DNA from: Escherichia coli
GTDB lineage: Bacteria; Pseudomonadota; Gammaproteobacteria; Enterobacterales; Enterobacteriaceae
NCBI RefSeq assembly: GCF_003334765.1
Contig: NZ_QOWT01000011.1
Strand: one strand, 5' to 3'
DNA length: 64,000 bases
The position numbers and the translations under genes were made by a program. Below are positions 7,799-36,415 of the stretch, piece after piece. The notes beneath the pieces were generated by a model, which did no database searches, was not told where the DNA came from, and was given only the letters and a program-made list of their open reading frames with translations. Position 1 is the first letter of the stretch. Each line of letters begins with the position of its first letter.

Positions 7799-7910
7799 CC
7801 CCGGCTAGACCGGGGTGCGCGAATACTGCGCCAACACCAGGGAAATCTTGGCTGCGCCGTAAATTATTATGATGAGTTACAAGGGCACAGCACTGTTTTT
7901 CAGGCCGCAC
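7790..7910 (-). ncRNA. arcZ: ArcZ small RNA (SraH/RyhA), convergent with arcB
   Basis: Reverse complement reads GTGCGGCCTGAAAAACAGTGCTGTGCCC...GCGCACCCCGGTCTAGCCGGGGTCATTTTTT; terminator hairpin plus U-run overlaps the arcB stop codon (7796-7798). Confidence 0.8.
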
Positions 7911-26717: not shown

Positions 26718-27905
<1,188 letters not shown>

Positions 27906-28090: not shown

Positions 28091-29524
28091 CTAATTGTTC
28101 TGATAAATATCTTTATACAAACGGCTTTCAAAACGCACTAACGGAATACGGCGATTACGCTGATCCGCAGGTTCTACTGCATAGCCAGAAAGATATTGCA
28201 CAAACGCCATTCGTTGCCCGCTCGCTGTGGTAATGAATCCCGCCAGGTTATATACCCCCTGCAACGAACCGGTTTTCGCTGAGACTTTTCCATCCACGCC
28301 CGCCTGATGCAGACCTGCACGGTACTGCAAAGAGCCGTCATAGCCCGCCAGCGGCAGCATGGAGATAAAGTTAAGTTCATTGTCGTGTTGGGCAATGTAT
28401 TGCAGCACCTGCATCATGGTGGCGGGGGCAATCAGGTTATGCCGCGAAAGCCCTGAACCATCGGCAATAATGGTGTTTCCAATATCGACACCGGCTTGCT
28501 GGCGCAGGATCTGACGCACGGCGTCCGACCCGGCCCGCCATGTTCCAGGCACATTGAAGCGCGCATGGCCTATCATGCGGAAAACCGTATCGGCGATCAT
28601 GTTGTCCGACTTTTTCAGCATAATCTTAAGCAGATCGTGCAGCGGGGCCGACTGTTTACTGGCAACTACCGTTCCAGGTTCGTTAACCTGAGTCTGGCGC
28701 AGCAGTGTTCCGCTCCAGGTGATACCCGCCTGTTTTAACTCATCTTTCAGAATTGCACCGGCATAGCTGGCTCCATCCTGCACGGCAAAAGCCAACGGGA
28801 GCGGCTCAGAACGTTGTGGCAGGCATCCCGTCAGCGTAAAGCGGTTCAGGTCGCCTGGCACCACATCCAGTTCGCAGTATTGCGCTTCGGCAGAACCACG
28901 GGGGAGGGTGCGTACCTGGCTGAACATCGTAACGGGGTAATAAGATGCCACGCGTATAAAAGCCATATCACCAGGCTTTGGGGCACTGTAGAGCGAGACG
29001 GAGAAACAGTTGCGGTCAACTATGGCGGCGGCAGGCGGAGCGCTAAAGCATTGTGTCATGTCATTCCATGGCCAGCCGGGGGCTTTATCGTGGCTGGCGA
29101 AAATGGAGGTATCTATCAACACATTGCCATCGATTTGGTTGACGCCAGATTTTTTCAAAGTCGCGACCATATTGCGAATATCCTGACGTTTTAACGTCGG
29201 ATCGGCACCAAATCGCGCCACTAAGTCACCCTTAAGTACGCCGTTTTCCACATTGCCTTTGGTTTCAAGCGTCGTGGTAAAACGAAAATCGGGGCCGAGT
29301 TGAATCAACGCCGCCAGCGCAGTAATCACTTTCTGGGTACTGGCAGGCAGCGCCATCTGCTGACTGTGGTAATCAATAGCGGGGGCCGACGCGCCGACTT
29401 TTTGCACCATCAGGGCAAGGTTGGCACCAGCGGGGAGTTGAGTAATGTACTCATCAACATTTGCGGCCTGAACACTGAACGCTATACAGCTGGTCAATCC
29501 GATGATAAATCTGGAAAATCGCAT
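28091..29524 (-). CDS. dacB: D-alanyl-D-alanine carboxypeptidase/endopeptidase DacB, PBP4 (477 aa)
   Basis: Full ORF with signal peptide MRFSRFIIGLTSCIAFSVQA and active-site STQK. Confidence 0.9.
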   Translation of the reverse strand: MRFSRFIIGLTSCIAFSVQAANVDEYITQLPAGANLALMVQKVGASAPAIDYHSQQMALPASTQKVITALAALIQLGPDFRFTTTLETKGNVENGVLKGDLVARFGADPTLKRQDIRNMVATLKKSGVNQIDGNVLIDTSIFASHDKAPGWPWNDMTQCFSAPPAAAIVDRNCFSVSLYSAPKPGDMAFIRVASYYPVTMFSQVRTLPRGSAEAQYCELDVVPGDLNRFTLTGCLPQRSEPLPLAFAVQDGASYAGAILKDELKQAGITWSGTLLRQTQVNEPGTVVASKQSAPLHDLLKIMLKKSDNMIADTVFRMIGHARFNVPGTWRAGSDAVRQILRQQAGVDIGNTIIADGSGLSRHNLIAPATMMQVLQYIAQHDNELNFISMLPLAGYDGSLQYRAGLHQAGVDGKVSAKTGSLQGVYNLAGFITTASGQRMAFVQYLSGYAVEPADQRNRRIPLVRFESRLYKDIYQNN

Positions 29525-29643
29525 AATCTCGCGCTAACAACCTGGAATCGAGCCGTCATACTACGGCGCAACGCCCTATAAAGTAAACGATGACCCTTCG
29601 GGAACTTCAGGGTAAAATGACTATCAAAATGTGAATTGTAGCT

Positions 29644-29678
29644 GACCTGGGACTTGTACCCGGGTCGGTATTTTTTTG
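29644..29678 (+). terminator. Leader terminator/attenuator in the greA 5' region (GraL-type)
   Basis: GACCTGGGACTTGTACCCGGGTC hairpin then GGTATTTTTTT about 95 nt upstream of the greA ATG. Confidence 0.45.
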
Positions 29679-29771
29679 CTTCTGGTCCCGGTAAGGAGTT
29701 ATGCCGGGCAGGCCGAACAGCCGGGGTGGGTGAAGACTTGCCCTATCAGGAATATTCAAGAGGTATAACAA

Positions 29772-30248
<477 letters not shown>

Positions 30249-30291
30249 GAATTACCCAATACTCAAGATGTTGATGTATTGTAAAGAAAGG

Positions 30292-30316
30292 AAAAAGGCC
30301 GCTATGCGGCCTTTTA
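30292..30316. terminator. Hairpin terminator between convergent greA and yhbY (likely bidirectional)
   Basis: AGGCCGCTATGCGGCCT hairpin flanked by A-run upstream and T-run downstream. Confidence 0.5.
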
Positions 30317-30403: not shown

Positions 30404-30697
30404 TTAGCGTGGCAGCGAGATTTTACGTTCTTTAGTTGGGCGATAAAGCACCAGCGTTTTACCGATGACCTGTACATTACAGGCGCCGGTTTCGCGCACG
30501 ATAGCTTCCACGATCAAGGTTTTAGTTTCGCGATCTTCGGTGGCGATTTTCACCTTGATGAGTTCATGGTGCTCTAACGCTTGTTCAATCTCGGCCAGCA
30601 CCCCTTCGGTCAAACCATTACTGCCAAGCAGAACAACTGGCTTGAGCGGATGTGCCAGACCTTTCAGGTGCTGTTTTTGTTTAGTACTCAGATTCAT
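30404..30697 (-). CDS. yhbY: CRS1/YhbY RNA-binding protein (97 aa)
   Basis: Full ORF MNLSTKQKQHLKGLAHPLKPVVLLGSNGLTEGVL... Confidence 0.85.
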   Translation of the reverse strand: MNLSTKQKQHLKGLAHPLKPVVLLGSNGLTEGVLAEIEQALEHHELIKVKIATEDRETKTLIVEAIVRETGACNVQVIGKTLVLYRPTKERKISLPR

Positions 30698-36328: not shown

Positions 36329-36415
36329 GCCGAGGTGGTGGAATTGGTAGACACGCTACCTTGAGGTGGTAGTGCCCAATAGGGCTTACGGGTTCAAGTC
36401 CCGTCCTCGGTACCA
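36329..36415 (+). tRNA. leuU: tRNA-Leu (anticodon GAG), co-transcribed with secG
   Basis: GCCGAGGTGGTGGAATTGGTAGACACGCTACCTTGAGGTGGTAG...CCTCGGTACCA; long variable arm, anticodon loop TTGAGGT, encoded CCA. Confidence 0.9.

Follow-up and report, generated by a model that had tools for sequence, protein, structure and literature searches.

The DNA analysed in this work is a stretch of 64,000 nucleotides (hereafter called the window) that consists of E. coli K-12-type DNA. The gene order around the region of interest is obgE (26733-27905, plus strand), dacB (28091-29524, minus strand), greA (29772-30248, plus strand), yhbY (30404-30697, minus strand), rlmE and ftsH. A 501-nt stretch spanning the greA leader and the dacB-greA intergenic region shows 100% identity with E. 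coli K-12 MG1655, and it was found in every one of the 5426 complete E. coli genomes that were searched. The Rfam family RF01769 ("Enterobacteria greA leader") matches positions 29555-29676 over the full length of the model (1-124), with a score of 127.5 bits and a gathering score of 60. The RefSeq annotation of the E. coli genomes inspected carries no feature over this element, which is described in the literature under the name GraL. Elsewhere in the window, Rfam matches are located at 7803-7910, 36329-36412, 40198-40463, 45162-45232, 46745-46859 and 47089-47260; these are ArcZ, two tRNAs, the rimP leader, naRNA4, the S15 leader and SraG, at the positions expected for E. coli.

The features of the greA leader are listed below, together with the evidence on which each assignment is based.

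29590-29618, plus strand: greA P1 (sigma70) promoter, -35 element ATGACC at 29590-29595, 17-bp spacer, -10 element TAAAAT at 29613-29618 (consensus scan; Potrykus 2010; conservation)
29601-29628, plus strand: greA P2 (sigmaE) promoter, GGAACTT at 29601-29607, 16-bp spacer, TCAAA at 29624-29628 (pattern match; published consensus; conservation)
29623-29640, plus strand: GraL 5' tail, +1 to +18 of P1 transcripts, with the P1 start at A29623 and the P2 start at A29634 or A29635 (published numbering; in vitro initiation)
29641-29651, plus strand: terminator stem, 5' arm GCTGACCTGGG (terminator scan; fold; covariation)
29652-29658, plus strand: terminator loop ACTTGTA, 7 nt (minimum-free-energy fold; sequence and length differ between genera)
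29659-29669, plus strand: terminator stem, 3' arm CCCGGGTCGGT (terminator scan; fold; covariation)
29670-29681, plus strand: A-U7-GCUU release zone (published 3' ends; Term-seq; T-run conserved across Enterobacterales)
29682-29771, plus strand: greA 5' UTR beyond the terminator, reached on read-through; Shine-Dalgarno sequence AAGAGG at 29758-29763 (sequence)
29772-30248, plus strand: greA coding sequence, 158 aa (open reading frame list; RefSeq annotation of the identical MG1655 sequence)

An earlier sequence-only reading of this DNA had pointed out a hairpin followed by seven T residues about 95 nt upstream of the greA ATG, and this element is present exactly as it was quoted. It consists of GACCTGGG (29644-29651), the loop ACTTGTA (29652-29658), CCCGGGTC (29659-29666), GGTA (29667-29670) and a run of exactly seven T (29671-29677), the last of which sits 95 nt before the A of the ATG at 29772. 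The 8-bp hairpin described in this way is the upper part of the full GraL stem, which comprises 11 bp formed by GCUGACCUGGG and CCCGGGUCGGU (29641-29669) and is followed by A, U7 and GCUU (29670-29681). The three added lower pairs are G29641.U29669, C29642-G29668 and U29643.G29667, and only A29670 lies between the stem and the T-run.

In the terminator scan, the hairpin has 7 G-C pairs among its 11 pairs, a loop of 7 nt and the tail ATTTTTTTGC. It has the form of a canonical intrinsic terminator, that is, a G+C-rich stem, a short loop and a U7 run one nucleotide past the stem on the transcript strand; inspection of the minus strand showed that the hairpin is followed there by TACAATTCAC, which contains no T-run. 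The free energy of the hairpin is -18.6 kcal/mol, corresponding to z = -4.8 against dinucleotide shuffles, and none of 200 shuffles folds as well. Under strict criteria (at least 9 bp, at least 5 G-C pairs and at least 6 T in 8), two hairpins are found in the real 64-kb window, compared with 0.4 per shuffled window, when both strands (128 kb) are scanned; the chance of finding such a hairpin in a 250-nt leader in the right orientation is about 1 in 1000. It is confirmed that the GraL hairpin is statistically unusual and not a chance feature. The sole other hairpin satisfying the strict criteria in the window is located at 52559-52583 on the plus strand, and has 9 bp, 6 G-C pairs and a T-rich tail (AGCCCCGATTTTTACCATCGGGGCT TTTTTTCTG).

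The hairpin and T-run are almost certainly the published GraL leader terminator, a partly efficient, Rho-independent terminator located unusually near two overlapping promoters. The sequence-only reading had regarded the element as consistent with GraL RNA, and in fact the agreement holds feature by feature: the locus and the sequence are the same, as are the 11-bp stem, the AU7GCU2 tail, the P1 and P2 starts 11 bp apart and the AUG at +150 (PMC2836576; PMC6829880). No difference was found, so that the window contains the published element itself. The terminator is already known, having been described in 2010, dissected in 2019, entered in Rfam and detected by Term-seq. Note that the functional statements on GraL given below are taken from papers on the identical sequence, and the analysis presented here is sequence-based.

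The greA gene is transcribed from overlapping sigma70 (P1) and sigmaE (P2) promoters (Potrykus 2010, PMC2836576). P1 was assigned in that work as a promoter of the TTGACA-N17-TATAAT type, and P2, which we located at 29601 with the search pattern GGAACT-N(15-18)-TC.AA, agrees with the sigmaE consensus GGAACTT-N16-TCNAA quoted there. Among 26 Enterobacterales sequences, the TGAC and TAAAAT of P1 and the GAACT core of P2 are invariant or nearly so. In the published numbering, counted from the P1 start, the hairpin spans +19 to +48, the U-rich tail ends at +59 and greA begins with its AUG at +150 (Dylewski 2019, PMC6829880). This numbering, with the stem starting at +19, the tail extending to +59 and the ATG at +150, is compatible only with A29623 as the P1 start. 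In vitro, transcription is primed by ApU at P1 and by ApA at P2, and the two starts are 11 bp apart (PMC2836576); therefore the P2 start is A29634 or A29635. Two further reported promoters, P3 and P4, gave only 17 and 6 Miller units, and P1 and P2 are the sole active greA promoters (PMC2836576/PMC6829880).

The earlier reading had also proposed that the leader terminator stops a fraction of the transcripts, and published measurements bear this out. Two-thirds of greA transcripts end in the leader, with 3' ends spread over about 10 nt; the abstract of the original report describes an "11 bp stem followed by AU7GCU2", and the 3' ends were mapped within UAU7GCU2, to within 2 nt on either side (Potrykus 2010, PMC2836576). 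Chains of GraL initiated at P1 are 49-59 nt long (Dylewski 2019, PMC6829880). In purified transcription, chains of 50-60 nt (P1) and 40-50 nt (P2) build up and resist GreA and GreB, and they are released from immobilised templates (PMC2836576/PMC6829880). The activity of a P1P2-lacZ fusion falls from about 750 to about 250 units once the hairpin region is added, which corresponds to 66% termination in vivo, and termination in vitro is about 60% (PMC2836576). Both clusters of GraL RNA are seen on Northern blots, in a pattern that is unchanged in rnc and rne mutants (PMC2836576/PMC6829880); single-copy GraL is barely detectable by this method (PMC2836576/PMC6829880), although Term-seq read counts are high (PMC7815308). 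Mutations of the stem have graded effects: shortening it from 11 to 7 bp lowers the termination efficiency four-fold, disruption of the three bottom pairs abolishes the longer products, and swapping these pairs results in precise termination with sharper 3' ends in vitro (PMC2836576/PMC6829880).

A check by 3'-end mapping at about 29676-29680 had been proposed, and published Term-seq data on the identical sequence provide it, with a positive outcome. A 3' end was recorded at MG1655 position 3328811 on the minus strand, which is -96 relative to the greA start codon; it is supported by 65,239 reads in one growth condition and by 61,204 in another (Adams 2021, PMC7815308). This position is 29676 of the window, the sixth of the seven T, and it defines an RNA of 54 nt from P1 and of 42-43 nt from P2. 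The intrinsic-terminator score of this 3' end is 5.2, the threshold being 3.0, and its Rho score is 0.67, which is not significant ("No") (PMC7815308). The TERMITe paper contains no discussion of greA.

We then compared the stem among species, using 80 gammaproteobacterial greA loci, fetched with one genome per species. In 25 Enterobacterales, which range from Escherichia to Budvicia and Photorhabdus, greA is preceded at a distance of approximately 80-130 nt by a hairpin with a T-run after it. RNAalifold independently recovers the same helix, with double changes at 9 of 10 pairs. When the 25 sequences were aligned using a covariance model (R1) built from GraL, 87.3% of the stem cells form standard pairs, compared with 74.4% in shuffles, and the stem covariation score is 0.508, compared with 0.273, with none of 500 shuffles reaching the observed values; note that such a structure-fitted alignment itself favours the structure. 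Compensatory changes involving both sides are observed at 10 of the 11 stem pairs, and sliding the partner by 1-3 columns reduces the pairing to 25-54%. For example, Rosenbergiella, Klebsiella sp. BIGb0407, Erwinia and Photorhabdus have wholly different arm sequences with the pairing retained. The GraL stem is maintained by compensatory changes across Enterobacterales.

A search of the 80 greA loci with the GraL covariance model gave matches confined to Enterobacterales; a match in Shewanella (E = 0.62) and one in the window at 57025 (E = 0.83) were treated as chance matches. The Rfam model RF01769 was run on 26 Enterobacterales loci (L001-L024, L033 and Ca. Pantoea edessiphila, L049), 22 of which score over its threshold, and on the seven Pasteurellaceae loci, none of which does.

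The word "attenuator", which the sequence-only reading had applied to this element, holds loosely, in the sense of a leader terminator. In its stricter sense, a classical attenuator or riboswitch-like leader, an RNA structure upstream would compete with the terminator. Two observations speak for such a structure: the RF01769 consensus draws three helices 5' of the terminator in a full-length model that the window fits, and Naville and Gautheret (2010, PMC2965389) claimed "a clear antiterminator structure" for greA leaders. However, the 5' helices of RF01769 fall at 29555-29625, where they either precede the P1 start at A29623 or span it, and are not in the RNA. Nor do they covary in the 26 Enterobacterales sequences: pairing is seen in 79.3% of their cells and in 79.6% of those of shuffles, the covariation score is 0.056 (shuffles, 0.059; 323 of 500 at least as high), and a double change occurs at one pair only, where 1.2 are expected. 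The candidates of Naville and Gautheret were taken from up to 200 nt upstream of the terminator, with start sites disregarded (PMC2965389). In the real transcript of 59 nt, the terminator is the only fold, both as the minimum-free-energy structure and as the centroid, and the stem is preceded by no more than 18 nt of RNA in transcripts from P1 and about 7 nt in those from P2. We rejected the antiterminator reading on the basis of the non-covarying helices and their position upstream of the start site: no transcribed antiterminator is present in the greA leader, and GreA increases termination rather than relieving it. The authors of the GraL studies themselves stated that the element fits neither the definition of an attenuator nor that of a riboswitch (PMC2836576/PMC6829880). 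The antiterminator reading is already largely refuted, and we consider it very improbable.

Two other accounts concern the short RNAs themselves. In one of them, the hairpin chiefly serves to terminate a separate, trans-acting sRNA gene, graL, with the greA mRNA as incidental read-through and the control of greA as a by-product. Overproduction of GraL changes more than 100 transcripts and improves competitive fitness, effects that scrambled GraL lacks (PMC2836576/PMC6829880), nudE is reported as a trans target (PMC6829880), and the +1 to +18 sequence is conserved. Much of this conservation, however, is accounted for by the sigmaE -10 element and the P2 start, with which the sequence overlaps. 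Moreover, since P1 and P2 are the sole active promoters, all greA mRNA passes through the terminator, and the GreA-dependent control requires GraL in cis; GraL supplied in trans fails to reproduce it. A role in trans and control of greA in cis are not mutually exclusive, and we regard the account that gives priority to the former as unlikely. The other account, in which Rho-dependent termination or nuclease processing generates the short RNAs, has in its favour that 3' ends scattered over about 10 nt are unusual for an intrinsic terminator, and that the P3 and P4 5' ends suggest processing in the greA leader. Against this, purified RNA polymerase yields the same array of 3' ends with the chains released, rnc and rne mutants leave the pattern unaltered, the Rho score is insignificant at 0.67 and bicyclomycin does not raise downstream relative to upstream coverage (PMC7815308), and, in vitro, the 3' ends become sharper when three base pairs are swapped. 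This account is already refuted by the in vitro data and is extremely improbable.

The flaw revealed above lies in the Rfam model rather than in the locus. Naville and Gautheret (2010) is the probable source of the RF01769 family, and the 5' two-thirds of the model represent conserved promoter DNA, not RNA structure, so that the antiterminator it implies does not exist. In other words, 29555-29622 is conserved because it is promoter DNA, which probably comprises the overlapping greA P1, greA P2 and divergent dacB promoters. The block AAAGTAAACGATGAC (29580-29594) shows no variation, or almost none, among the 26 Enterobacterales sequences, and a variable stretch of about 13 nt separates it from another conserved block, CATACTACGG (29557-29566). 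Read on the minus strand, these two blocks (29557-29594) give TTTACT-N18-TAGTAT, which, judging from this match, is plausibly a putative divergent dacB promoter overlapping the -35 element of greA P1. A literature search found no published dacB start site.

The GreA autoregulation to which the sequence-only reading referred depends on this leader according to the published data. Deletion of greA raises the activity of leader-lacZ fusions about 3-3.5-fold and lowers GraL about 4-fold, and the catalytically dead GreA D41A does not repress (PMC2836576/PMC6829880). GreA regulation is kept when the native promoter is replaced by lacUV5 (PMC2836576/PMC6829880), and is unaffected by deletion of everything past +59 (PMC6829880). 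When the +1 to +18 sequence is scrambled or the hairpin arms are swapped, the repression by GreA is largely lost and termination in vitro persists (PMC6829880). The effect is not due to GraL in trans, to Hfq, to Nus factors or to sigmaE (PMC2836576/PMC6829880). The GreA effect on termination is not seen in purified in vitro transcription (PMC2836576/PMC6829880), and the feedback step may therefore be indirect.

The leader thus works as follows. RNA polymerase initiates with sigma70 at P1 (A29623) or with sigmaE at P2 (A29634/5). An A/U-rich segment, 18 nt long from P1 and about 7 nt long from P2, is transcribed first, followed by the hairpin of 11 bp with a 7-nt loop (29641-29669). At the A-U7-GCUU sequence (29670-29681), approximately two-thirds of the complexes release their RNA, mainly with a 3' end at 29676 in vivo; the resulting GraL RNAs measure about 54 nt when started at P1 and about 43 nt when started at P2. 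The other third of the complexes continue for 90 nt and form the greA mRNA. The weak pairs at the foot of the stem (G.U, C-G and U.G) may allow two registers, of 8 bp and of 11 bp, that would move the release window by three nucleotides and thereby spread the release sites; this idea agrees with the published loss of longer products when the bottom pairs are broken. GreA would raise termination through an accessory factor or by an indirect route.

The consensus elemental pause has the form G-11 G-10 ... Y-1 G+1. The sequence at 29667-29678, GG-UAUUUUUUU|G (G29667 and G29668, then U29677 | G29678), fits this consensus with the RNA 3' end at U29677, and the spacing of G(-10), T(-1) and G(+1) is retained in 17 of 25 Enterobacterales. 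One could imagine, although we consider it unlikely, that the GraL terminator directly senses the state of the secondary channel of RNA polymerase; GreA-stimulated cleavage at the U7|G pause, together with a partner, could then shift complexes to a release-competent register. If this were true, the feedback would not be indirect, and GraL would be an intrinsic terminator boosted by the product of its own gene, a new kind of factor-enhanced intrinsic termination. GreA acts globally as a transcription fidelity and anti-arrest factor, so that the control of its dosage is of interest.

Beyond the terminator, the read-through leader (29677-29800) folds no better than shuffled sequences (z = -0.47). 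This part contains a 10-codon mini-ORF (region 29693-29733) that extends from an ATG at 29701 to a TGA at 29731-29733; AAGGAG is located just 2 nt before the ATG, and both lie within the loop of a CCCGG/CCGGG hairpin. The mini-ORF lacks conservation in E. albertii and Citrobacter, and is probably not translated. At the other end of the gene, published Term-seq data contain a strong 3' end on the greA strand at 30419, 171 nt beyond the greA stop codon and inside the 3' end of yhbY, and a yhbY 3' end at 30290, according to which the greA and yhbY mRNAs would overlap by about 130 nt. A hairpin at 30293-30315 has a T-run on the yhbY side only.

Among the 80 loci, dacB and greA are divergent in Enterobacterales, in Pasteurellaceae and in a single Orbaceae genome. 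Many of the remaining gammaproteobacterial loci (within L026-L080) have greA directly after carB, here identified by its conserved C-terminal motif alone, on the same strand, with overlapping stop and start codons in about a dozen cases; a separate leader is lacking in these carB-greA loci. Shewanella, Aeromonas and Alcanivorax also have a hairpin some 30 nt ahead of greA, which was not counted as a leader terminator, since the upstream gene is on the same strand and the hairpin may be the terminator of that gene; in Aeromonas and in two of the three Shewanella loci, this gene is one other than carB. In Pasteurellaceae (L025, L028, L030, L032, L034 and L044), a hairpin with a T-run is located about 30 nt before the greA ATG, at approximately 1440-1475 of each locus. 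The upstream gene is divergent there, so that the hairpin can only belong to the greA leader. The scan detects perfect hairpins in four of these loci (L025, L030, L032 and L044), and the arms vary between genera with the pairing kept. Just upstream, on the greA strand, lies a match to the Rfam family RF02904 ("Aggregatibacter sRNA 69"), at 1337-1419 in L030, 1344-1426 in L032, 1331-1412 in L028 and 1335-1416 in L025. The two together suggest that a leader RNA resembling GraL has been entered here under a different name, and the Pasteurellaceae hairpin is probably an analogue of GraL.

To the literature, this work adds the correction of the Rfam model, independent order-wide covariation support for the stem and the unrelated terminator of Pasteurellaceae. 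The window scores over the threshold of RF01769, and the final helix of that model is the GraL terminator; unlike GraL RNA, model positions 1 to about 68 (29555-29622) lie upstream of the mapped start site and show no covariation. The Pasteurellaceae greA leader resembles the GraL locus in its divergent dacB, in a G+C-rich hairpin with a T-run in the greA orientation, and in pairing that is kept despite changes of the arms. It differs in that its hairpin is about 30 nt from the ATG, whereas that of GraL is about 95 nt away, and in the lack of sequence similarity to GraL, as neither the GraL covariance model nor RF01769 matches it. The greA leaders of bacilli and the rnk leaders (Naville and Gautheret 2010, PMC2965389) have unrelated sequences and predicted structures, and no common feature was found in that work. 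A likeness is also seen with sRNAs that originate in prematurely terminated 5' UTRs, among them those detected by Term-seq in E. coli (Adams 2021, PMC7815308) and the SreA riboswitch RNA of Listeria: here, too, the released leader fragment can act in trans and the terminator controls the gene in cis. GraL differs from sRNAs such as the SreA riboswitch RNA in that it involves neither a ligand nor an alternative fold; instead, it is the protein product of the gene that increases termination.
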